NCBI GenBank assembly: GCA_030615655.1
Contig: JAUWYU010000002.1
Span: 1-32,845 of the forward strand
Reading direction: 5' to 3'
DNA: 32,845 bases
DNA from: Dehalococcoidia bacterium
Lineage (GTDB): Bacteria; Chloroflexota; Dehalococcoidia; Dehalococcoidales; RBG-16-60-22
Positions 1 through 31,299 of this stretch are shown here, piece after piece; position 1 is the first letter of the stretch, and each line of letters begins with the position of its first letter. Under the pieces are notes generated by a model. That model was not told where the DNA came from. It saw only the letters and a program-made list of their open reading frames with translations, and ran no database searches. The translations under genes and the position numbers were made by a program.

Positions 1-435
1 GGAGCGGGCGCCGGCAATGAGCGTTACCTTTTTCCCTTCCTTTAGGGCGACATCGGTGAGGAAGCGGAGGGGGGCGATACCGATACCGCCGGCTACAAGC
101 AGGAGATTTTTTGAATCCGGACTAATCGTGAAGCCGCTGCCCAGCGGCCCGAAGATATCGACAGTGTCGCCGGCTTTGCGCCGGGAGAGCCAGTCGGTGC
201 CTTTGCCGACCACGGTGAAGAGCAGGGCGAGTCTGACCCCGTCAACGCGGTGGACGCTGAGGGGCCGGCGCAGGAGGGTATCCCGGCCGCAGTAGACCAT
301 GAGGAACTGCCCGGGGCTGGTGGCGGGGGCTACCCCGGGGGCTTCCAGCCAGAGAAGGCGAGTCCCCGGCATGACCTCGGTGTTGGAGATAACGGGGGCC
401 GAGCAGATAAAAGTTTCAGGTGGTTTGGTGGTCAA
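1..435 (-). CDS. pyrK: Dihydroorotate dehydrogenase electron-transfer subunit PyrK, N-terminal part; continues past the left window edge
   Basis: Not in the ORF track because it runs off the edge. Reverse-complement translation from TTG (435..433) gives (M)TTKPPETFICSAPVISNTEVMPGTRLLWLEAPGVAPATSPGQFLMVYCGRDTLLRRPLSVHRVDG...DIFGPLGSGF...LLLVAGGIGIAPLRFL. This is the ferredoxin-reductase-type fold with PGQF, RRPxS, GPxG and AGGxGxAP motifs. AAGGAG RBS at 449..444, 8 nt upstream. Lies downstream of pyrR-pyrB-pyrC on the same strand. Confidence 0.75.
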   Translation of the reverse strand, partial: MTTKPPETFICSAPVISNTEVMPGTRLLWLEAPGVAPATSPGQFLMVYCGRDTLLRRPLSVHRVDGVRLALLFTVVGKGTDWLSRRKAGDTVDIFGPLGSGFTISPDSKNLLLVAGGIGIAPLRFLTDVALKEGKKVTLIAGARS

Positions 436-1640
436 TGTGGGTGCTCCTTAGATATTTCATCAAGGTTAATTCCAAGTTCTTTGATAGCTTCGATAAACGT
501 ATCAATTTCTGGTTCGCTCATCCTTTCTGTAGAAATAGTTGGATATTTGTGTTTTGATACGCTGGAAAATTCTCTAGCTAACCTTGGTATACTTCGTAAT
601 TTCCCCAAATATTTATTCCCTGCCTCAGCACTACTTTTTCTTAATATGATATCAGGCCAGATTTGAAGCTTGCCGTTACTAAACGCCGTAAATATTGTTC
701 CACCATTAATACAGCCTTTCCAAGGCATCCTGTAGCTGTAACCTGAGACTCCCCAGTTTATAAAGTCCCCGTTGACAAAACGACTTTCCTCTAAATCTTT
801 AGCCTTAGAGTACAGGTATATTGCTTTTTCGTGTCCACCTTCTTTACATCTATTAATGAAAATCTCCTCATTTATTTTTGTTGATTTTATTTTTCTTGTT
901 GTACTTTTTTCAAGGATTCTCATAAGAAGACTAGCAAAACCTACATATTCAAGAGTCTGAAAGGGATTCGATTGAGGAATAATTTTATGGGCTTTTGGGT
1001 TCCTTATAGCACCTGCAGCACCCTTATACAGAAACATGAACCCTTGCTGTTCACTACGGTCGGTACTATTTTTTAGCTCATTAATACGGATTATTGGATA
1101 TTTAGTTATCTTTTTAAGGTCTTTATCATAGTCGAATGAAAATACTTTGTTCATCAAATCATCGCCGTCTAGGTCAAGCCCTGTTACTTCTTTAACGTAA
1201 TCTATTAATCCGATGAAAGCATCAAGAATCGCACCGCGATAGTTGCCAGCAATAAAATATGACCTACTGGCCTCAATTACTCTAGGGTGAAATTGCATTT
1301 CATCAAAAAGATCATTAGGAGAATTTAAGGCATCCTTTTTCTCAGCGACATCTTCATAACGAGTTAATTCAATCGTTTCAATTATTGATGCTAAGGCTGC
1401 CTCTCTTCTATCCAGGTCTTTATAGTATTCTTTAAATTTTTCTTCTATAGCGCCGCGTTTAATCCCAGATTCCTTGAATGTTTGATACTCGATAGAATCC
1501 TCACCGAAGACTTTAAATAAGAACAATTCGATTGTTGTGCACCATCTTGGGAACTTATTGTTATTAATGGCTAATCTTTCGAAGCTGCTAAACTCTTGCA
1601 TTTTCTGATTTAGAAATTTCAGAACTTCACTTTTGTCCAT
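432..1640 (-). CDS. 402-aa protein with a central TIGR02391 (Hypoth_Ymh)-like domain carrying an R-x4-H (HEPN-type) motif; N- and C-terminal regions unrecognised
   Basis: Long ORF with AGGAGGGGAGG RBS upstream. Residues about 115-245 (FHPRVIEASRSYFIAGNYRGAILDAFIGLIDYVKEVTG...DGDDLMNKVFS...QQGFMFLYKGAAGAIRNPKAHK) match the TIGR02391 signature as I recall it. RNPKAH is encoded at 987..1004. Sampled 60-nt lines give 33-35% GC, against about 63% in adjacent pyrC. Confidence 0.8.
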   Translation of the reverse strand: MDKSEVLKFLNQKMQEFSSFERLAINNNKFPRWCTTIELFLFKVFGEDSIEYQTFKESGIKRGAIEEKFKEYYKDLDRREAALASIIETIELTRYEDVAEKKDALNSPNDLFDEMQFHPRVIEASRSYFIAGNYRGAILDAFIGLIDYVKEVTGLDLDGDDLMNKVFSFDYDKDLKKITKYPIIRINELKNSTDRSEQQGFMFLYKGAAGAIRNPKAHKIIPQSNPFQTLEYVGFASLLMRILEKSTTRKIKSTKINEEIFINRCKEGGHEKAIYLYSKAKDLEESRFVNGDFINWGVSGYSYRMPWKGCINGGTIFTAFSNGKLQIWPDIILRKSSAEAGNKYLGKLRSIPRLAREFSSVSKHKYPTISTERMSEPEIDTFIEAIKELGINLDEISKEHPH

Positions 1641-1707
1641 CTTTTCTACCTCCCCTCCTTTAGCCCCCTTAAAACAGGGGATAGGGTTACCACTAAAAAT
1701 CCCTTTA

Positions 1708-3012
1708 TTATCTTACCTCTATTTCGAGAGAGTCATCCATATAGACCGGCTTCCCGCTGAAAAGGGTCGCCATGACTTTGCCTTTGAGGGTGGCGCCGGC
1801 AAGGGGGGTGTTTTTGCCCTTGGAGGCGAAAAGAGACGTGTCGACCACCCATTCGCGGTGAAGGTCGAAGACGGTGATATCGGCGGGTAAACCGACCTCC
1901 AGAGTGCCCAGCTTCTCGTAACCGAGAACGCGCGCCGGGCCGACGGTCAGCGCGGCGATGAGGGTGTTCAGGCTAAGGTCGTTGTTAAAAATAAGGCCCA
2001 CCAGGCTGCCCAGGGCTGTTTCCAGTCCGCTGATGCCGAAGGCGGCTTTGATGAATTCACAGTCCTTATCGGCGGCGGTGTGGGGGGCATGGTCGGTGGC
2101 GACGATATCAATGACGCCGTCGTTCAGTCCCCGGAGAAGCGCTACAGTGTCCCGACTCGTTCTCAGGGGCGGGTTCACCTTGGCACCGGTATTGAATCCC
2201 AGCGCCGCTTCCTCGGTCAGGGTGAGGTGGTGGGGAGTAACCTCGGCGGTGACCGGTATTCCCTGCTCCTTAGCCCTGCGGATAAGCTCAACCGAGCCCT
2301 CGGTGCTGACATGAGCGATGTGCACATGGCCGCCGGTCTGGCGGGCCAGAGCCAGGTCGCGCTGCACGATGGTTTCCTCGGCGGCGACGGGTATGCCGCA
2401 AAGTCCCAGCTCCAGTGAAACGATGCCTTCGTTTATCTGTCCGCCCTCGCTGAGTGTTTTGTTCTCACAGTGGTCGATTATCGGCAGGCCGAAGGCGCGG
2501 CTATAGTCCAGGGCCTGTCGCATAATCAGGGGGCTCCTGACCGGCTCGCCATCGTCGCTGTAGGCAACAACGCCGGCCACCTCAAGCTCGCCCATGTCAA
2601 CCATTTCATCTCCCCTTATCCCCCTGGTAACGCGGCCTATCGGCAGCACCCGTATGACGCCCTCCTGCGCCGCGATTGCTTTGACATAGCTAACGGTCGC
2701 CTCGTTATCCAGAGGCGGGTTGGTATTGGCCATGCAGCAGACGGTGGTAAAGCCTCCCCTGGCCGCCGCCTGTGTTCCGGTGGCGATGGTCTCCTTCTCC
2801 TCAAATCCGGGCTGGCGGAGGTGGCAATGGAGGTCGATGAAGCCGGGGCAGACGATGAAACCTTCGGCATTAAGAGCATCATAGTCCGACTGTGGTGGAG
2901 TCCCTTCTCCCAGCCAGGCGATTTTACCTTCGGTGATGAGCAGGCCGCCGATGATATCAATTCCCTGACCGGGGTCAATTATGCGGCCACCCCGGATAAG
3001 CAGTGATTTCAT
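1708..3012 (-). CDS. pyrC: Dihydroorotase
   Basis: MKSLLIRGGRIIDP...GFIDLHCHLRQPG...DHAPH motifs typical of the amidohydrolase-type dihydroorotase. Start trimmed to the ATG at 3012 (MKSLL) because the longer track ORF overlaps pyrB. pyr operon context. Confidence 0.9.
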   Translation of the reverse strand: MKSLLIRGGRIIDPGQGIDIIGGLLITEGKIAWLGEGTPPQSDYDALNAEGFIVCPGFIDLHCHLRQPGFEEKETIATGTQAAARGGFTTVCCMANTNPPLDNEATVSYVKAIAAQEGVIRVLPIGRVTRGIRGDEMVDMGELEVAGVVAYSDDGEPVRSPLIMRQALDYSRAFGLPIIDHCENKTLSEGGQINEGIVSLELGLCGIPVAAEETIVQRDLALARQTGGHVHIAHVSTEGSVELIRRAKEQGIPVTAEVTPHHLTLTEEAALGFNTGAKVNPPLRTSRDTVALLRGLNDGVIDIVATDHAPHTAADKDCEFIKAAFGISGLETALGSLVGLIFNNDLSLNTLIAALTVGPARVLGYEKLGTLEVGLPADITVFDLHREWVVDTSLFASKGKNTPLAGATLKGKVMATLFSGKPVYMDDSLEIEVR

Positions 3013-3019
3013 CGATTTT

Positions 3020-4423
3020 CTAATGGTGGCCTCCCGTAAAGTGGCTGGGCTTGAATCCGTGGGCCTGTGCCGCCTCTTCCGTATCGAAAACAATCAGGTT
3101 CTCCGGCCGGATGGTCCGGACCCAATGGCTGTCAGCGCTGTGGTATTTCTTGGTATCCAGTTTGCCTTCATGCCAGTCGGCGCTGGCAACATATTTCGGT
3201 TCAAACCCGTGTTCGCAGTAGACGCACCTTAACGTTAGAGGCCGGGTGTTCACTATTTTGAACTCGGGCTTGAGGTACTTTGTTTCGGTTTCCTGAATCG
3301 ATACGCAGGTTGGATTGGGGCATGCGGGGCTTAAATACCGGCGATAGACAGGGTATTCTATTTTGGGAGGGGAGTCTTCCTCGGGAACGGCAATTTCTCT
3401 GGCGCCCAACAGCGTGGCGAGGAGCGCCATCCTGATAGGTACCCCCCGGGCGGCCTGTTCGAAGTACTTGCTTCTCGGGTCGGCATCAACTTCGTAAGCC
3501 AGTTCGTCGACCCGGGGCAGGGGGTGCATGACCAGCGTTTGCCGGAAAGCCTTGCCCTTGAGCAGCTTCTTATCTACCACCGGGTATTTTCCCTTGAGCT
3601 CCCGTCCCTCTTCGGCAGCGGCGAATCTCTCTTTTTGCGGTCGGGTAACGTAGAGGGCGTCAACGCCGGACTTCAACTCGGCCTGAAGGCTGATGCCCGG
3701 CATCATCGCCAGCTGGTGGGGGCTGCTGGGTGTCGTGTAAATGGCGTCCAGGGGAAAGAGATTGTCCTTAGCCTCCCAGCCTGAAGTTTCCAGTCTTTCC
3801 ACCTCGCCGCCGTATTCTGTAATCAGTTTATTGATAACGTGCTCGGGCACCTCCAGGCCGGGGCTGGGGCAGAAGAGAATATCGGCTCCGAATCTGGCCA
3901 GCGCGAAAATCAGGGAGTGGATTGTCCGGCCGTATTTTAAATCACCCCACAAGGCAATTTTCAGTCCTTTAACGGTATTTCTTTCCTTCTGGAGGGTGTA
4001 GAGGTCACACAGCGTCTGGGTGGGGTGCTGGTGACCGCCGTCGCCGGCATTGATAACCGGGATACCGGCGAAGTCGGCCACGACCTTGGCGGCGCCTTCC
4101 CACGGGTGGCGGACGACAATGATATCGGCATAGCTACCGACGATTCGCGCCGTATCCGCAATACTTTCACCCTTGGCCAGGGAGCTGGCACCGACGTCCG
4201 AGGCGGTAATAACACTCCCACCGAGCCGCTGCATGGCGGCTTCGAACGAGAGCCTTGTCCTGGTGCTCGGTTCAAAGAAGAGGCTGGCCATAATCTTGCC
4301 CCGGCACAGGCCGTGCTGCTCTTCCATCGCCGCCGACATTTCATCGGCCAGGGAAAAGAGCGCCAGTACTTCGCCGTTGGAGAGGTCGTCTATGGTAACC
4401 AAGCTTCTATTTGTCAGTGTCAT
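3020..4423 (-). CDS. pyrB: Aspartate carbamoyltransferase catalytic chain fused to a PyrI-type zinc domain plus a 60-aa C-terminal tail
   Basis: STRTR, HPTQ and HPLPR motifs of ATCase within residues 1-340. Residues about 355-407 (CPNPTCVS...LRCVYCEH) resemble the C-terminal Zn domain of PyrI. 467 aa, compared with about 310 aa for a stand-alone PyrB. Confidence 0.9.
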   Translation of the reverse strand: MTLTNRSLVTIDDLSNGEVLALFSLADEMSAAMEEQHGLCRGKIMASLFFEPSTRTRLSFEAAMQRLGGSVITASDVGASSLAKGESIADTARIVGSYADIIVVRHPWEGAAKVVADFAGIPVINAGDGGHQHPTQTLCDLYTLQKERNTVKGLKIALWGDLKYGRTIHSLIFALARFGADILFCPSPGLEVPEHVINKLITEYGGEVERLETSGWEAKDNLFPLDAIYTTPSSPHQLAMMPGISLQAELKSGVDALYVTRPQKERFAAAEEGRELKGKYPVVDKKLLKGKAFRQTLVMHPLPRVDELAYEVDADPRSKYFEQAARGVPIRMALLATLLGAREIAVPEEDSPPKIEYPVYRRYLSPACPNPTCVSIQETETKYLKPEFKIVNTRPLTLRCVYCEHGFEPKYVASADWHEGKLDTKKYHSADSHWVRTIRPENLIVFDTEEAAQAHGFKPSHFTGGHH

Positions 4424-4444: not shown

Positions 4445-5026
4445 TCATCGGAATTCCTGCTTCTCCGGTTGACTGGTAGCGGGTCTATTGTCGGGCGGGC
4501 TTATGATGGCTACCTCATCGACGCCATCAGTCTCTAGCAAGCGAACCTTAATATCTTCATGCCGGGCGCTGGGTATGTTCTTGCCGACATAGTCCGCGCG
4601 TATCGGCATCTCACGGTGACCGCGGTCAATAAGGACGGCCAGTTGAATGGAGCGCGGTCTTCCCAGGTCAACCAGGGCGTCCATGGCGGCGCGAATGCTG
4701 CGTCCGGTATAGAGGACATCATCAACGAGCACCACGGATTTGCCGTCGATACCGGCCGGTATGTCGGTGTTCCGGACGATAGAGTTGGCTTCTGATGCGG
4801 GCAGGTCGTCCCGGTATGAGCTGAAGTCCAGAGCGCCGACGAGCAGTTTAGATTTATCGTAGATCTCGATATTGGCGGCCAGCCGCCCGGCCAGGGGGAC
4901 GCCCCGGGTTTGCAGGCCGACCAGCACCAGGTGGTCGGTGGACTTGTTGCGCTCGATAATTTCGTGGGCAATGCGGGCGAGGGTGCGCCGGATGTCCTCG
5001 GCCGTCATTACGATTTTATTATGCAT
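4445..5026 (-). CDS. pyrR: Bifunctional pyrimidine operon regulator / uracil phosphoribosyltransferase PyrR
   Basis: [27 protein letters not shown]...[16 protein letters not shown] (PRPP-binding motif). Start placed at the ATG at 5026, preceded by a GAGG RBS. First gene of the pyr operon, with a PyrR attenuator upstream. Confidence 0.9.
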
Positions 5027-5059
5027 AAAAATAACCTCTTGCACCGGCTGGCAAGAGGT
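5027..5059 (-). terminator. Intrinsic terminator of the pyr leader (attenuator), directly upstream of the pyrR start codon
   Basis: Minus-strand sequence ACCTCTTGC-cagccggt-GCAAGAGGT followed by TATTTTT then ATG. Perfect 9-bp stem. The 3' arm contains the pyrR RBS. Confidence 0.65.
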
Positions 5060-5087
5060 CATACTTAAGCGTATTCCCGTTGTATTT

Positions 5088-5118
5088 CCTTGCCAGCCTC
5101 GCGGGACTGGTTTAAAGG
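5088..5118 (-). promoter_or_regulatory. PyrR-binding RNA stem-loop (anti-antiterminator) in the pyr leader
   Basis: Minus-strand CCTTTAAACCAGTCCCGCGAGGCTGGCAAGG contains the conserved AGUCC-G-GAGGCU...AAGG PyrR binding-loop pattern. Its 3' half GGCTGGCAAG is perfectly complementary to CTTGCCAGCC in the terminator 5' arm, which would form the antiterminator. Confidence 0.6.
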
Positions 5119-5151
5119 TTCTAAGTTGGCTCCTTCCGGTTTATTTGGATA

Positions 5152-16973: not shown

Positions 16974-18899
16974 TTAGATATCCAGATTAGCCGTCTTGGC
17001 GTGCGCCTGGATGAAAGCCTTGCGGGGCGGGACTTCACCGCCCATCAGCATCTGAAAAACCTCATCGGCCCTGGTAGCGTCTTCAATGTTTACTTCGAGG
17101 ATGGTGCGGGTGTTCGGGTCCATGGTGGTCTCCCAGAGCTGTTCCGCCGTCATTTCACCCAGGCCCTTGTAGCGCTGAATCTCTGTCTTTCTTGAAGTAC
17201 TATTCTGTAGTACTTCCTCTTTTTCCTGTTCCGAATAGACCCATTTCAAGCCATCACTGCTTTTGATGCGGTAAAGAGGTGGTTGGGCGATGTAAAGGTG
17301 CCTCTGGCTGATGAGCTCCATCATGTGCCGGAAGAAGAAGGTGAGCAGAAGGGTGCGGATGTGGGAGCCGTCAACGTCGGCGTCGGTCATCAGAATGATA
17401 CGGTTGTAACGCAGGCGCGTCGGGTCAAATTCGTCGTCGATGCTGGTGCCGAGGGCAGTCACTATGGTGCGGATTTCGTTATTGGCCAGCATCTTGTCCG
17501 GCGGTGCCTTCTCCACATTCAGGATTTTACCGCGCAGCGGAAGTATCGCCTGGAAGCGGCGGTTCCGACCCTGCTTGGCGGAGCCCCCGGCGGAGGGGCC
17601 CTCCACCAGAAAGAGCTCGCACTGCTCCGGGTCTTTCTCCGAGCAGTCTGCCAGCGTGCCGGGCAGCGTACCCGTTTCCAGTCCGCTCTTTCTGATAATT
17701 AAATCGCGTGCCTTCCTGGCGGCTTCCCTGGCTTTGGAGGAGATAACGCATTTTTCTATGATTTTCTTGGCTTCATCGGGGTGTTCCTCGAGGTAGAGGG
17801 TTAAGCCCTCGTTGACGGCACTCTCTACCTGACTTTTGATTTCAATATTGCCCAGCTTGCTCTTGGTCTGACCCTCAAATTGCGGCTCGGAGAGCTTGAC
17901 ACTGATGATAGCGGTAAGTCCTTCCCTGACGTCCTCACCGGTCAGGTTGGGTTCATCTTCCTTGAGGAGCTTGTTTTTATGAGCGTAGTCGTTAAGCACG
18001 CGGGTCAACGCTGAGCGAAACCCGGTAATATGGGTGCCGCCATCTATGGTATTCACGCAGTTGGCGAAGCTGAAGGCGGATTCACTGAAGCCATCGTTGT
18101 ACTGGAGGGCTACCTCGACCGTCGTGCTGTTGACCATTTTGGAGATATAAATAGGTACCGGATGACGTACTACGCGGTTTCGATTGAGGTGGCGGACGAA
18201 GCCGGTAATCCCGCCTTCAAAATAGAAAGTCCGTTCCAGGTCCTTACCTTCGTCTTTGATGGTTATTTCCACAGCTTTATTGAGATAGGCCATCTCCCGC
18301 AGATGTTCGCTTAAGATATCAAAATCATAGCTGATATTACCAAATATCTCCGTATCGGCAAGGAAGGTAGTGGTGGTGCCGGTGTCATCGGCTTCGCCGA
18401 TTACTTCTAGTTCTCCCTGCGGTATACCCTGCCGGTACTCCTGGTAGTAAATCTTGCCGTTAAGCCTGACATCGACCCGGCAGTGTGAGGAGAGCGCATT
18501 GACCACCGAGGCACCTACGCCGTGCAGTCCGCCCGACACCACGTAGGTCTTACCGCCGAACTTGGCCCCGGCGTGGAGCACGGTCATTACCGTCTCCAGG
18601 GCTGATACATTGGTGGAGGGGTGGATGTCTACCGGAATGCCGCGCCCGTTGTCCACCACGGTTACGTAGTTATCCTCTTTAATGGTGACGGTAATGCGGT
18701 CACAGCAGCCGGCCATGGCTTCGTCAATGCTGTTATAGGCAACCTCGTAGACCAGATGGTGCAGTCCGCGCTGGTCCGTGCTGCCGATATACATGCTGGG
18801 ACGGCGCCGCACCGCCTCCCGTCCACCCAGTACCTGAATGTCCTCGGCGGTATATTTGTTATTGTTTTGCGGCTCTTCCGGCCTGGTTTTCTTCGGCAT
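16974..18899 (-). CDS. gyrB: DNA gyrase subunit B
   Basis: [92 protein letters not shown]. Start trimmed to MPKKTRPEE (ATG at 18899). Confidence 0.95.
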
Positions 18900-19039
18900 T
18901 ATATGTCTTCTCTCATTGGGCAGTGATAATAGGAGGCAGGCGAACGGCGGTGGTTGATGGGAACAGTGTGTCCTGAGTAGCTTACAGCTACAATTGAGCG
19001 GGCTGACCAACTAAAAAACGTACACATCTAGCCTGTTAA

Positions 19040-19068
19040 ATTTTAGCATAATTTAGCTATAAAGTAAA
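19040..19068 (-). promoter_or_regulatory. Candidate gyrB promoter
   Basis: Minus strand TTTACT (19068..19063), 17-nt spacer, TAAAAT (19045..19040). This would give a 5' UTR of about 135 nt. Confidence 0.3.
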
Positions 19069-19171
19069 GCTGGGGAGGGGTGTTTTTTGTCGTATGAGGT
19101 TGTATTGACGAGGCTTTTTATGCCAGGTATTCCATTTTTTATCCCAAAAGTGTATTATCAGAACAGGAATT

Positions 19172-19225
19172 AGAGAAAATGCAGACATTGCAGAAATTGG
19201 AGAAAATGCAGACATCTGGAGAAAG
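19172..19225 (+). repeat. Two tandem copies of a 27-nt unit with a 16-nt perfect core GAGAAAATGCAGACAT
   Basis: The core occurs at 19173..19188 and 19200..19215. The units agree at 18 of 27 positions without gaps. Ends 8 nt before the GH3 start codon and contains the RBS region. Confidence 0.85.
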
Positions 19226-19233
19226 GAGGTTCT

Positions 19234-20817
19234 ATGATGACTAAAGATGAGTTGTTCAGAACGGGAGACCAGGAAAGAATCTGGCAGAAATACTGCGGGT
19301 TTCTCGACCTCTCTATGACAGAGTTCATGGAGATACAGGAACAGTTGTTAATGGAGCATATTGAGCAGATAGCTGATAGCCACCTGGCCAAGAATTTCAT
19401 GCCGCAGAAACCGCGGAATATATCCGAATTCCGCAATCATGTACCGCTGACGACATATGAGGACTATGCCCCCTATTTCAGCGAGAAGAACGAGGATGTT
19501 TTGGCAGGTAAACCTTACGCATGGACTCATACCTCTGGTAGAGGAGGTAGCGTCAAGTGGGTGCCATACACCCAACGGGCTTTTGAACGTCTGGGTATCT
19601 CCGGCGTTACTACGCTCATACTTGCTTGTGCTTCCCGCAGGGGTGAGGTCAATGTCCAGCCGAATATTCGCCTCATGCAAAATTTGCCTCCCAAGCCTTA
19701 TTATTCATGGCTCGGTGCGTCTGCAATGCTAAGCCTTTTGGACGTTTACACGATACCTCCCCTGGAATTGTCCGAGGCGGAGACCTTTGAGAAGAGGATA
19801 CAGATGGGTTTTGAAATAGCGCTCCGGACCGGTGTAGATGTTCTGGGCTCTTTAACAACTGTTTTAATTAGAATGGGCGAACGCTTTACCGAAGGCTCGG
19901 CGCAATTTAAAATTTCCCGAACTATGCTACATCCAAAAGTAATGCTGCGCCTTGTAATGGCCTGGTTAAAGAGTAAAGTCCGCAAGAGAGCTTTGCTGCC
20001 GCAGGACTTGTGGCCTTTGAAGGGACTCATCTGCTACGGTATGGATACAAGCATTTACAAGGAGCAACTTGTATATTATTGGGGGAAGGAGCCCCTGGAG
20101 GTATACGCTGGTACAGAAATGGGACTGGTAGCAACTCAATCGTGGAACAAAAAAGATATGACGTTTCTTCCTTTTTCTTGCTTTCTCGAGTTTATCCCCG
20201 AGGATGAGTGGCTTAAGTCTCGTGAGGATAAAGACTATCAACCATCAACAATTCTCCTTGATGAGCTTGAAGAGGGAAAGCGTTATGAAGTTGTAATTAC
20301 CAGTTTTTATGGCATGCCTTTCTTGAGATACAGAGTGGGTGACCTTATCAAAATTATAGCCTTGAGCGATAGTGGAAGCGGGGTTAGGATTCCTCAGATG
20401 ACTTTTGATAGTCGGTCTGACGACTTGATAGACATCGGCGGTTTCACCCGGCTGGATGAAAAAACTGTCTGGCAGGCTATTTTTAACAGTAAAATAAGGA
20501 ATGTTGACTGGTGTTTACGAAAGGAATACGAAGAGGGGCAAGCGGTACTCCACCTCTATATTGAGTTTAAAGACGATACCGATGTTGAGGAGGTACAGCG
20601 TGTTATAAATGACCACCTAAAGTCTCTTGACCCTGACTACCGCAACCTCCACGATATGCTTGGTATGCAACCATTGAGGGTTACTTCACTGCCAAAGGGC
20701 AGTTTCCAGAGATATTACGAGGCGAAGCGGATGGGAGGTGCTGACCTATCCCACCTCAAGCCTCCTCATATGAATGCATCCGATTCTGCGATCCAGGAGC
20801 TCCTGGGACAAATTTAA
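19234..20817 (+). CDS. GH3-family (acyl-acid amido synthetase-like) adenylating enzyme
   Basis: 527 aa. N-terminal ...[16 protein letters not shown]..., then [15 protein letters not shown] (the GH3/ANL-type S-G-x-x-G-x-x-K nucleotide motif), and the overall length fit bacterial GH3 domain proteins. AAGGAGG RBS. Confidence 0.7.
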
Positions 20818-29702: not shown

Positions 29703-30650
29703 TTATACAGGGCACAACTCGCACCGCGTACGAACTAATAGGGGACGCAGTACGAATGGGTCCAAAGCATCGTCGATCTCTTCAATTTTTTCATCCATCC
29801 TATGGAGTATCTCGGCTATGTTCTTATCACTGAAGCTCTGGCACACGGTTTTAAAGGCAAGTTCACATACCGCTACCATGTCTGGGCCCAGAGAAACCTC
29901 CCTCAATCTATGCCCCAAGTCATAACGCGTTTGATCACTAAAGTAGGCTACGACTTGACCCTCTTTAGCTCGAAACTCTAATTTTTCCACTGGCTTGTTG
30001 CCCGTGCCAACCCACCATACTACCCAAAGCACGTCATCCGCTATCCTTCTCACCTCATCCCTTTCTTTGCTAATTTGCCTCTCGACTTCTTCTTTAAGAT
30101 TAGGGTTTTGATTAATAAGGTCCTCCACTATTTCGCCCGCTTCCCTCCGGAGTTCTCGAAGAGCATCCCGGCATGCGTTCCAAGCCTCTCGCCATTCCTC
30201 GAAGGCTGCCCACCATCCTTGGCCACGGGTATGTTCCCGTAAAGACATCAAAAGCATCCTGTTTCGGCGGTTTATCTGCCGCTGCTCTCTCCTAGCCTGG
30301 TCGGAGTCCGAATCAAGCCCTCGGGGAAGTTCCTTGTCCAACAGGGGCTTAAATACCGTGTCAGCATCTCTGTCCTCAGCAAATGAACCAGGTCTTGTGA
30401 CATAACTCTTGAAGGAAACCGCAAATTCAGTAAGGTCATTTAGGTGCTTCTGCAATTCATCTGTCAGGAACTGCTTTCTGATTTCAGTAGCAAGAATATC
30501 CCCTCGCCGTCCTGCCAGATAAGCCTTCACCGTCTGACGATGACATCCGGTAGCCCGGCTTATAGCCGAAATCGACTCGCCTTGATGGTGAAGCTCAACC
30601 ATGCGCCTGACTTGGTCATCAGTCACTCGACTACCTCTATGTCTTGCCAT
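29703..30650 (-). CDS. HTH-domain protein (N-terminal resolvase/transposase-type helix-turn-helix), C-terminal about 260 aa unrecognised
   Basis: MARHRGSRVTDDQVRRMVELHHQGESISAISRATGCHRQTVKAYL is an HTH of the HTH_23/resolvase type. The rest is a charged helical region and a Trp-rich segment. Lies upstream of the integrase on the same strand. Confidence 0.7.
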   Translation of the reverse strand: MARHRGSRVTDDQVRRMVELHHQGESISAISRATGCHRQTVKAYLAGRRGDILATEIRKQFLTDELQKHLNDLTEFAVSFKSYVTRPGSFAEDRDADTVFKPLLDKELPRGLDSDSDQARREQRQINRRNRMLLMSLREHTRGQGWWAAFEEWREAWNACRDALRELRREAGEIVEDLINQNPNLKEEVERQISKERDEVRRIADDVLWVVWWVGTGNKPVEKLEFRAKEGQVVAYFSDQTRYDLGHRLREVSLGPDMVAVCELAFKTVCQSFSDKNIAEILHRMDEKIEEIDDALDPFVLRPLLVRTRCELCPV

Positions 30651-30761
30651 TTTGACACCTCCTCATTATTTTAGTTATCCGTGAGGATTTCACCAGCGAC
30701 ACTATTCATAAGTATACAATTATAGCGATATTTAAAGCTAATTAATCATCATTTACCACAA

Positions 30762-30823
30762 TTGACAAACCTGTAAATATACTTTACTGTCTAATTGTAT
30801 AAGTAATCTGATAAGTTTGTCAA
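30762..30823. promoter_or_regulatory. Inverted pair of TTGACAAAC 9-mers in the divergent intergenic region (candidate face-to-face -35 elements or operator)
   Basis: TTGACAAAC at 30762..30770 on the plus strand, and its exact reverse complement at 30815..30823. AT-rich 182-nt intergenic region between divergent genes. The -10 elements are weak: TATACA on the minus strand with a 16-nt spacer, and no good -10 on the plus strand. Confidence 0.3.
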
Positions 30824-30832
30824 GAGGTTATC

Positions 30833-31054
30833 ATGGCTGAGATAAAAGATGCTACGTACAAAAGACGTTATAGGATGAGAGCCGTTGGCGAAGGCGGATT
30901 AAACATTGTCGTCTCAATCCCCCGGGTGGTTATCGAGAGAGAAGCAGAGAAGCACGAACTAACCATTACGGAATTCTTGCAACGATTTAAGGCAGTAGCC
31001 CAGTACGATAATTTCGATGGGATTCGTTATACCTTTGAGGAAATACCCGGGTAA
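30833..31054 (+). CDS. Hypothetical 73-aa protein
   Basis: ORF with a weak AGAGG RBS and no recognised motif. First gene of the rightward unit of the element. Confidence 0.5.
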   Translation: MAEIKDATYKRRYRMRAVGEGGLNIVVSIPRVVIEREAEKHELTITEFLQRFKAVAQYDNFDGIRYTFEEIPG

Positions 31055-31092
31055 GAGAGAGCGCCTTAGTCAAGCTAAAGAGGAGAGCAGTA

Positions 31093-31299
31093 GTGGAAAA
31101 CAGCAGTGAGTCCCTCGTTTTAACGCCAGAAGAGGTACGTAAGCTGCTAAAAATTTCGAGGAGCGTGCTTTATTCTGCTCTGGCGCAGGGCACCATTCCG
31201 TCAATTCGCGTATCCTCTAGAAAAATCGTCATTCCCAAGCATAGGTTTCTGAGATGGTTAGACGAAGGCGGAGGAAACAATTTGTATCCAAAAGAATGA
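31093..31299 (+). CDS. Excisionase-family / MerR-like HTH DNA-binding protein
   Basis: GTG start after an AGGAGA RBS. LTPEEVRKLLKISRSVLYSALAQGTIPSIRVSSRKIVIPKHRFLRWL matches the HTH_17/excisionase pattern. Confidence 0.65.
   Translation: MENSSESLVLTPEEVRKLLKISRSVLYSALAQGTIPSIRVSSRKIVIPKHRFLRWLDEGGGNNLYPKE

Follow-up and report, generated by a model that had tools for sequence, protein, structure and literature searches.

The window analysed here is a stretch of 32,845 nucleotides (positions 1 to 32,845, forward strand) of contig JAUWYU010000002.1, from a Dehalococcoidia bacterium of the order Dehalococcoidales (NCBI GenBank assembly GCA_030615655.1). It carries a pyrimidine biosynthesis (pyr) operon in which an open reading frame (ORF) of 402 codons, ORF402, lies between pyrC and pyrK on the same strand (Table 1). 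An earlier note, made from the letters alone, had placed the gene there and had taken it for a solo insertion of an RNase gene of HEPN type; NCBIfam matches confirm pyrC and pyrK, together with pyrB and pyrR. Here, we report strong profile evidence that ORF402 is a HEPN-family protein of the Ymh/TIGR02391 type, and we describe the slot that it occupies, which in related operons lies directly upstream of carB.

ORF402 is compositionally foreign to its operon, as its description as AT-rich had implied. Its GC content is 36.1% (about 34% in the earlier note, slightly too low) and its GC content at third codon positions (GC3) is 0.318, against 0.70 in pyrR, 0.69 in pyrB, 0.71 in pyrC, and 0.77 in pyrK. 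Within the 32.8-kb window, no AT trough is deeper (z = -3.4, relative to 400-nt windows elsewhere). Both junctions are in frame and all 402 codons are intact. The span first assigned to the gene, 432 to 1707, was correct at 432; the gene ends at 1640, and the remainder is spacer. No partner or antitoxin ORF separates ORF402 from pyrC or from pyrK in the ORF listing of the window, as had been noted, and homologous loci hold no conserved partner gene.

Domain architecture of ORF402

The central region of ORF402 (aa 116-243) matches PF09509 (Hypoth_Ymh; E = 1e-28; 100 bits; cut-off, 25) and TIGR02391 (E = 2.3e-19; 69.7 bits; cut-off, 39.45), in agreement with the family first proposed. The R-x4-H motif RNPKAH falls exactly where it had been placed, with R213 and H218 invariant in 79/79 homologous domains and N214 conserved in 77/79. 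The same region matches the PADLOC models Aga_HEPN (pAgo-associated HEPN; 4.6e-20) and PD-Lambda-3_B (5.3e-14, aligned to the C-terminal half of the model). The Aga_HEPN match is one of domain level, and no Argonaute-sized gene adjoins ORF402 in the ORF listing. The full-length AlphaFold2 (AF2) model has a mean predicted local distance difference test (pLDDT) score of 91.4, with aa 108-245 mostly helical at high confidence.

The flanking regions had been said to match nothing recognisable. This stands for Pfam, which gives no match to either end and no TIR domain in ORF402, but aa 1-101 match the PADLOC model PDC-S35 (E = 1.3e-6), and both ends are recurrent modules. The N-terminal module recurs joined to a CAP12/Pycsar-type TIR domain in P0066, P0098, L007, and L064, a combination taken to be the PDC-S35 architecture. 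The C-terminal module, in which D292, W296, G297, and S302 are invariant, recurs in proteins of ~360 aa (P0059-P0095) behind a different N-terminal part of ~210 aa, and one of these proteins has a sub-threshold match to NucS_C. Only 14 relatives of the C module were found among 1.84 billion representative proteins. Its AF2 model (pLDDT, 91.5; predicted template modelling [TM] score, 0.87) matched nothing in PDB at E <= 0.001 with Foldseek. The top match, the DNA-binding domain of phage T4 MotA (E = 0.25; target-normalised TM score, 0.60), was too weak and was set aside.

Three-domain ORFs remain intact across 33-74% identity. Ymh-type domains are also carried by plasmids (110 records) and, in a viral scan with the HEPN alignment as query, by 12 IMG/VR contigs, none of them with the three-domain architecture. 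Proteins of N-plus-HEPN type, 30-37% identical to ORF402 (computed over aa 10-244 or aa 41-244), are encoded on the IMG/VR contigs L099 (4677-5378) and L097 and L098 (4773-5369). No pyr genes lie near them, so phage-like elements carry the two-module core too.

Ymh is listed among the HEPN families that conserve the Rx4-6H motif and is known from fusions to AbiJ-NTD1, AbiTii, and pMORC and from links to restriction-modification operons (Anantharaman et al. 2013, PMC3710099). The central domain of ORF402 scores above both family cut-offs and retains this motif. Members of the family occur as solo proteins or as fusions in conflict-related contexts; ORF402 differs in that its HEPN domain lies between an N domain of PDC-S35 type and a C domain that is very rare, and in that its gene is part of a biosynthetic operon. 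A second likeness is to PD-lambda-3, a two-gene abortive-infection system of Escherichia coli that serves as an abortive-infection control (PMC13190303), whose component B resembles the ORF402 HEPN region. That system requires gene A, the product of which is reported with a PD-(D/E)xK nuclease domain (PMC10952713), whereas the neighbours of ORF402 are pyrC and pyrK and its N and C modules differ. PDC-S35, a single-gene candidate predicted by "guilt by embedding" (bioRxiv 10.1101/2024.01.29.577857), has its N-terminal module in common with ORF402, in which HEPN and C domains stand in place of TIR; the TIR versions are sister proteins. The R-x4-H motif is also found in HEPN-MNT type II toxin-antitoxin systems, but ORF402 belongs to another HEPN family and has no adjacent MNT or other small partner gene, and an assignment as a HEPN-MNT pair was rejected for lack of that partner. 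The Ymh domain family and single-protein HEPN effectors are already known; the N-HEPN-C architecture and the rare C domain appear to be undescribed in the searchable literature.

A variable slot upstream of carB

Slot statistics were drawn from 80 related loci (L001-L080), nearly all from Dehalococcoidia or other Chloroflexota, a species set picked by PyrC similarity alone, and ORFs at the comparison loci were called mechanically. Loci L081-L096, which were found through ORF402 homology and are biased to occupied slots, were excluded from these statistics.

All homologues of ORF402 or of its modules with readable context (8/8; P0002, P0003, P0004, P0005, P0008, P0046, P0064, and P0089) lie in a pyr operon directly upstream of carB, and in most of them the stop codon overlaps the carB start. 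Homologues at this place in other Dehalococcoidales pyr operons show 44-74% identity, and in the three-domain homologues the stop codon overlaps the carB start wherever the DNA junction is readable. Inserts of >300 bp separate carA from carB in 31/37 species (median gap, 1061 bp), compared with 0/48 at pyrR-pyrB, 1/54 at pyrB-pyrC, 5/60 at pyrC-carA, and 1/18 at carB-pyrK. Every one of the carA-carB inserts (31/31) is AT-richer than its flanks, with a mean GC of 0.41 vs 0.55.

Among 62 slot ORFs, Pfam identified DUF559 (11 ORFs), Hypoth_Ymh (6), CAP12-type TIR (6), IS200-like Y1 transposase (5), phosphoenolpyruvate (PEP) carboxylase (3), GIY-YIG (3), 8xMP (3), AbiJ_NTD4 (2), HEPN_AbiU2 (1), Abi_C (1), and GNAT (1), and PADLOC identified PDC-S35 (13), PDC-S32 (2), and PDC-S11 (1). 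Judged by these profile matches, slot content is dominated by conflict-type families. Clustering of 50 slot ORFs from 36 species gave 21 clusters (13 singletons).

The closest PyrC match to the host of ORF402 is 79% identical. The earlier note had proposed a check on whether the gene is absent from the pyrC-pyrK junctions of relatives; L001-L004 (77-79% PyrC identity) lack it, but homologues fill the carB slot in other Dehalococcoidales. The closest host relatives by PyrB (82-85%) hold other cargo in the slot, and the nearest three-domain homologues of known context are found in more distant hosts. These comparisons give strong support to a Dehalococcoidales operon of the order pyrR-pyrB-pyrC-carA-slot-carB-pyrK, with a slot that is hypervariable, AT-rich, and lineage-wide.

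The slot resembles defence hotspots between core genes, and genes embedded in defence operons, in that a fixed chromosomal position with conserved genes on either side is filled by differing conflict-related genes from one related genome to the next, these genes being diverse, AT-rich, and apparently of fast turnover. It differs in being an intercistronic junction of a biosynthetic operon, with cargo that is co-oriented, apparently promoterless, and overlapping the next essential start. Domains of the AbiU2, Abi_C, and AbiJ_NTD4 types are alternative occupants. The lactococcal proteins AbiD, AbiF, AbiJ, AbiU2, and AbiV likewise combine HEPN and accessory sensor-like domains in one polypeptide with no antitoxin gene; unlike ORF402, they belong to other HEPN families and are expressed from their own promoters on plasmids or islands, not inside an essential operon. 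No description of a lineage-wide cargo slot in a biosynthetic operon was found in the literature searched, and a start-overlapping, co-oriented cargo slot inside an essential biosynthetic operon, the chief novelty here, appears to be undescribed.

The pyr operon of the window contains neither carA nor carB, and the start of pyrK carries a remnant of carB. As the earlier note described, the TGA of ORF402 (432..434) overlaps the pyrK TTG (433..435) in the sequence TTGA (432..435), behind an AAGGAG ribosome-binding site. This TTG is the sole start codon that retains the conserved PyrK N-terminus. The first seven pyrK codons, TTGACCACCAAACCACCTGAA, are identical in 19/21 nt to the carB start TTGACCACCAAACCATCTAAA (L002, L003, L031, and L057), and PyrK NCBIfam profiles match the window protein only from residue 15. 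An AAGGAG-N8-9-TTGA junction also stands ahead of carB in L095, L096, and L081; by this match, the ribosome-binding site in the last ORF402 codons is the ancestral carB site. The cassette therefore sat upstream of carB, with carB later deleted in frame onto pyrK and carA presumably lost upstream. The order pyrC-ORF402-pyrK thus arose when the genes on either side of a cassette already in place, carA and carB, were deleted, and the carB remnant is a record of that remodelling. An independent deletion at L033:8322-8410 left a 29-codon carB stub, the TGA of which overlaps the pyrK GTG, and L027, L030, L035, and L051 also have no carAB in the operon between pyrC and pyrK.

GC3 was considered as a sign that the carB 5' end itself is cassette-borne. 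With codons anchored four codons before the conserved K-V-L-I-I-G-S-G-P motif, it is 0.40 over the first ten codons vs 0.65-0.78 further in; the contrast was not used, because a general AT-rich preference at gene starts explains it equally well.

Cargo genes share a leader in which a hairpin (CCCCTCTCC-loop-GGAGAGGGG) precedes an extended Shine-Dalgarno sequence (GGGGGTGAGGTA) and an ATG. The operon strand carries nearly all copies (45/47). Annotated slots account for 8% of the DNA examined and contain 28 of the copies. The leader is strongly concentrated at pyr-operon junctions (e.g., L096:565-611, L002:10261-10337, and L010:8526-8590), and the spacer ahead of ORF402 is a degenerate copy (slot-leader alignment, ...GGAGAGGGGGAT.AAGGGGGTGAGGTA...ATG). 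At seven loci, the carB 5' end is duplicated at cassette boundaries (Table 1). Four of these (L006, L031, L057, and L091) have a carB copy of ~35-70 nt, then a break followed by a GIY-YIG gene or a palindromic element of ~100 nt with the ends CTGTCATTCTGAG...CTCAGGGTGACA. The pattern suggests that units which rebuild the start of carB have inserted repeatedly and site-specifically into its 5' end. A candidate target for the slot enzymes lies at about nt 60-70 of carB, near ...ATCGGGCA.

Three slots (L022:5454-6941, L024:9964-11430, and L062:8415-9881) hold an archaeal-type PEP carboxylase (PF14010; best E = 9e-198), which is a metabolic and not a conflict gene; the L022 copy is AT-rich (36% GC). 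The pyrC-carA junction carries a GIY-YIG gene in L005 (2014-2364) and a GNAT acetyltransferase gene in L006 (7298-7726) and on the P0004 contig, all AT-rich. In L033 (7503-8293; Dehalococcoidia isolate S120), a Ymh gene between pyrC and pyrK is split into ORFs of 200 aa and 63 aa; it has another N-terminal part and no C domain, and the split reflects either a frameshift in a decaying copy or a sequencing error.

Expression, function, and competing explanations

The pyr operon combines a pyrR gene with a PyrR-binding leader that includes a terminator-like hairpin, as expected of a PyrR-attenuated operon; the earlier note had assumed PyrR attenuation, and RF00515 (55.8 bits) identifies the leader. 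On the operon strand from pyrR to pyrK, including the spacer ahead of ORF402, no terminator-like site was found. With this leader and no such site in between, co-transcription of ORF402 with the pyr operon and its translational coupling to pyrK are plausible, and ORF402 expression may be tied to pyrimidine status, as the earlier note suggested. In Bacillus, PyrR-controlled transcription rises when UMP and UTP fall, and by analogy that of ORF402 would rise as these nucleotides fall. Promoter-like hexamers inside ORF402 (8, vs 5.2 +/- 2.5 in shuffled sequence) were not used as evidence of an internal promoter, being expected in AT-rich DNA and not above the shuffled count.

We think it probable, if by no means assured, that ORF402 is a single-protein, abortive-infection-type HEPN RNase with regulatory or sensing N and C modules, carried as a passenger on the pyr transcript. 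Within this composite, the case is strong for the identity of the protein and for the slot and moderate for the function. Neither a promoter nor a terminator specific to ORF402 is evident; the gene would be transcribed from the PyrR-attenuated pyr promoter, and its translation would be linked to that of the essential gene that follows. The N and C modules would keep the protein inactive until a phage-derived cue activated it, and the resulting RNA cleavage would stop growth. Both the RNase activity and the defence role are drawn by analogy from single-protein abortive-infection HEPN effectors, which ORF402 most likely resembles.

Several points weigh against this account. The HEPN relationship is upheld by profiles, and no structural counterpart was found: Foldseek searches of the full ORF402 model against PDB and BFVD returned no HEPN and nothing at E <= 0.001, and PDB sequence profile searches with the full alignment or the HEPN-only alignment gave no relatives. 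With no fold match in PDB or BFVD, the assignment rests on the sequence profiles and the motif. The functions given for ORF402, for Ymh-only proteins, and for PDC-S35 are predictions, and so are the activating cue and the tasks assigned to the N and C modules. The hexamers inside the AT-rich ORF402 could allow pyrK to be transcribed partly independently of PyrR. All comparison sequences are metagenome assemblies. A comparison of cargo identity with PyrC and PyrB identity gave no clear outliers of the kind expected from recent transfer, the comparable pairs being mostly DUF559 and roughly tracking the host; turnover of the slot is accordingly deduced from the diversity and patchy presence of its cargo. 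We know of no cultured host or phage for this lineage.

A more specific proposal, which we regard as tentative and on the doubtful side, is that the slot works as a cassette system in an essential operon, with promoterless immune effectors that have a common leader inserted at the carB 5' end. Each incoming unit would supply a replacement carB start, which would explain the carB 5' duplications, and units might be mobilised by the co-resident DUF559, GIY-YIG, and Y1-transposase genes or by flanking homology. A drop in pyrimidines, as may occur in phage replication, would induce the effectors through the PyrR-attenuated transcript, and nucleotide status would then be an input to immunity. The nearest known arrangement is the integron array, likewise a series of co-oriented, promoterless single genes with a palindromic element and their own ribosome-binding site behind an upstream promoter. 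The slot differs in having no conserved integrase or attC/attI in a search that was not systematic, in having a carB 5' copy as its repeated boundary, and in its associated enzymes (DUF559, GIY-YIG, and Y1 transposase). No integrase adjoins the window operon among the ORFs scanned, in a search for integrases and att sites that was likewise not systematic; near related operons, one fragment was seen upstream of pyrR, in L091 and L092 only.

It is also conceivable, although we judge it unlikely, that slot genes including ORF402 persist as selfish passengers, kept not for defence but by their lock on an essential gene through the shared transcript, the embedded ribosome-binding site, and the overlapped start, and spread by nuclease or transposase genes or by flanking homology. 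The DUF559, GIY-YIG, and IS200-like Y1 transposase ORFs in the same slot fit this, as do the GIY-YIG genes and small palindromic elements bracketed by duplicated carB 5' ends, the carB ribosome-binding site carried in the last codons of the cargo, and the frameshifted L033 Ymh gene that is still in place. The invariant HEPN catalytic residues and the intact three-domain ORFs argue instead for selection on the protein, and the PADLOC PDC matches place these families inside defence operons in other settings. Selfish persistence and the composite account of an abortive-infection effector are not mutually exclusive.

We find it very unlikely that ORF402 is a housekeeping gene, a lineage-specific RNase or RNA-binding regulator of pyr mRNA or nucleotide metabolism. 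Its steady operon position in divergent species, its location under the PyrR leader, and the PEP carboxylase in three slots would suit such a role, but close relatives differ in slot content (often a TIR, AbiU2, AbiJ-like, or membrane protein), 6/37 species have no insert, the composition is foreign, and the domain family occurs widely on plasmids and viral contigs. A one-time, recent horizontal acquisition that placed a solo HEPN gene straight between pyrC and pyrK, as the earlier note proposed, would account for the strong compositional contrast and for the closest relatives (L001-L004) that have no such gene; it is highly improbable and is contradicted by the carB-derived codons 1-7 of pyrK, by at least eight other contexts in which homologues fill the slot next to carB, by the AAGGAG-N8-TTGA junction in common with carB junctions, and by the filled slot in 31/37 species. 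A chimeric assembly or a decaying pseudogene, which the metagenomic origin of all sequences and the frameshift in L033 might bring to mind, is scarcely credible given the intact ORF with in-frame junctions on both sides, the same arrangement in independent JGI, ENA, NCBI, and Logan assemblies, and the confident structure model with invariant key residues.

The usual places to look for defence genes are islands that carry their own promoters. On the composite account, one lineage keeps diverse abortive-infection-type effectors at a single intercistronic junction of an essential biosynthetic operon. If this is true, the slot would be a new genomic niche for immune genes, open to discovery through "guilt by position" in uncultured Chloroflexota, and a natural case of toxin genes under a nucleotide-sensing attenuator; coupling to carB or pyrK would be a means by which foreign genes avoid being lost or silenced. 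The analysis also adds new protein modules, namely an apparently undescribed three-module Ymh protein and its very rare C domain.

Other features of the operon and the window

Table 1. Positions of the features of the window operon (window coordinates) and of carB 5' duplications at comparison loci (locus coordinates)
Feature	Position	Strand	Basis
5' part of pyrK (dihydroorotate dehydrogenase electron-transfer subunit), truncated at window edge	1..435	-	NCBIfam NF000798, E = 2e-24
Start and first seven codons of present pyrK, derived from carB (TTGACCACCAAACCACCTGAA)	415..435	-	Match to carB starts
ORF402, three modules (N domain, Ymh-type HEPN, C domain), 402 aa	432..1640	-	ORF listing, PF09509, TIGR02391
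C-terminal alpha/beta module, aa 252-402	435..887	-	Recurrence in other proteins, domain model
AAGGAG ribosome-binding site for downstream gene, in last ORF402 codons	444..449	-	Sequence
HEPN domain, Ymh/TIGR02391 family, Pfam match aa 116-243	912..1295	-	PF09509, TIGR02391, PADLOC
RNPKAH, R-x4-H motif (R213...H218), aa 213-218	987..1004	-	Sequence position
N-terminal helical module, aa 1-104, long helix aa 65-104	1329..1640	-	PDC-S35 match, AF2 secondary structure
Spacer, 67 nt, pyrC stop to ORF402 start	1641..1707	-	Sequence
pyrC, dihydroorotase	1708..3093	-	NCBIfam, E = 8e-176
pyrB with C-terminal PyrI_C zinc domain	3020..4423	-	NCBIfam, Pfam
pyrR, longest ORF	4445..5062	-	NCBIfam PyrR, E = 2.4e-72, aa 13-188
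PyrR-binding leader ahead of pyrR	5024..5122	-	Rfam RF00515, 55.8 bits (gathering score, 54)
Terminator-like hairpin just before likely pyrR start	5062..5031	-	Terminator scan
carB 5' duplications	L031:3726-4210; L006:10490-10760 and 11059; L057:9790-10360; L091:7078-7240		
carB 5' duplications	L002:10216; L024:9810; L005:4727		

The true start of pyrC is likely M28 at 3012, to judge from profile matches that begin at aa 28-31. From its start at 5062, the longest ORF for pyrR shares sequence with the Rfam PyrR-binding site and the terminator-like hairpin, and the real start is probably the ATG of M13 at 5026, since profile matches begin at aa 13. PyrB (467 aa) has a PyrI_C zinc-binding domain (PF02748) at aa 368-408, with a weak "sunset" domain match, and appears to join the catalytic subunit to a portion of the regulatory one. 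The fused form is common to many related loci, and a subset has a different, non-fused PyrB type (~30% identity). The pyrK of the window is 47% identical to that of L087 (tblastn).

The remainder of the window is housekeeping chromosome, with gyrB, homoserine dehydrogenase, flavoprotein, and histidine kinase genes. A prophage or insertion sequence remnant was rejected as the source of ORF402, with no integrase or transposase in or beside the window operon and the rest of the window housekeeping. Upstream of pyrR, the window has a SnoaL-like gene and tRNA-Trp/tRNA-Leu, with no integrase fragment there; in L091 and L092 (1-289 in each; a close relative, PyrB 85% identical), a fragment of the phage integrase family (PF00589) lies directly upstream of pyrR. 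Shallower AT-rich stretches of the window at 18851..19400 and 30401..31100, with a minimum of ~0.39-0.40 GC, lie at or near long-ORF gaps.

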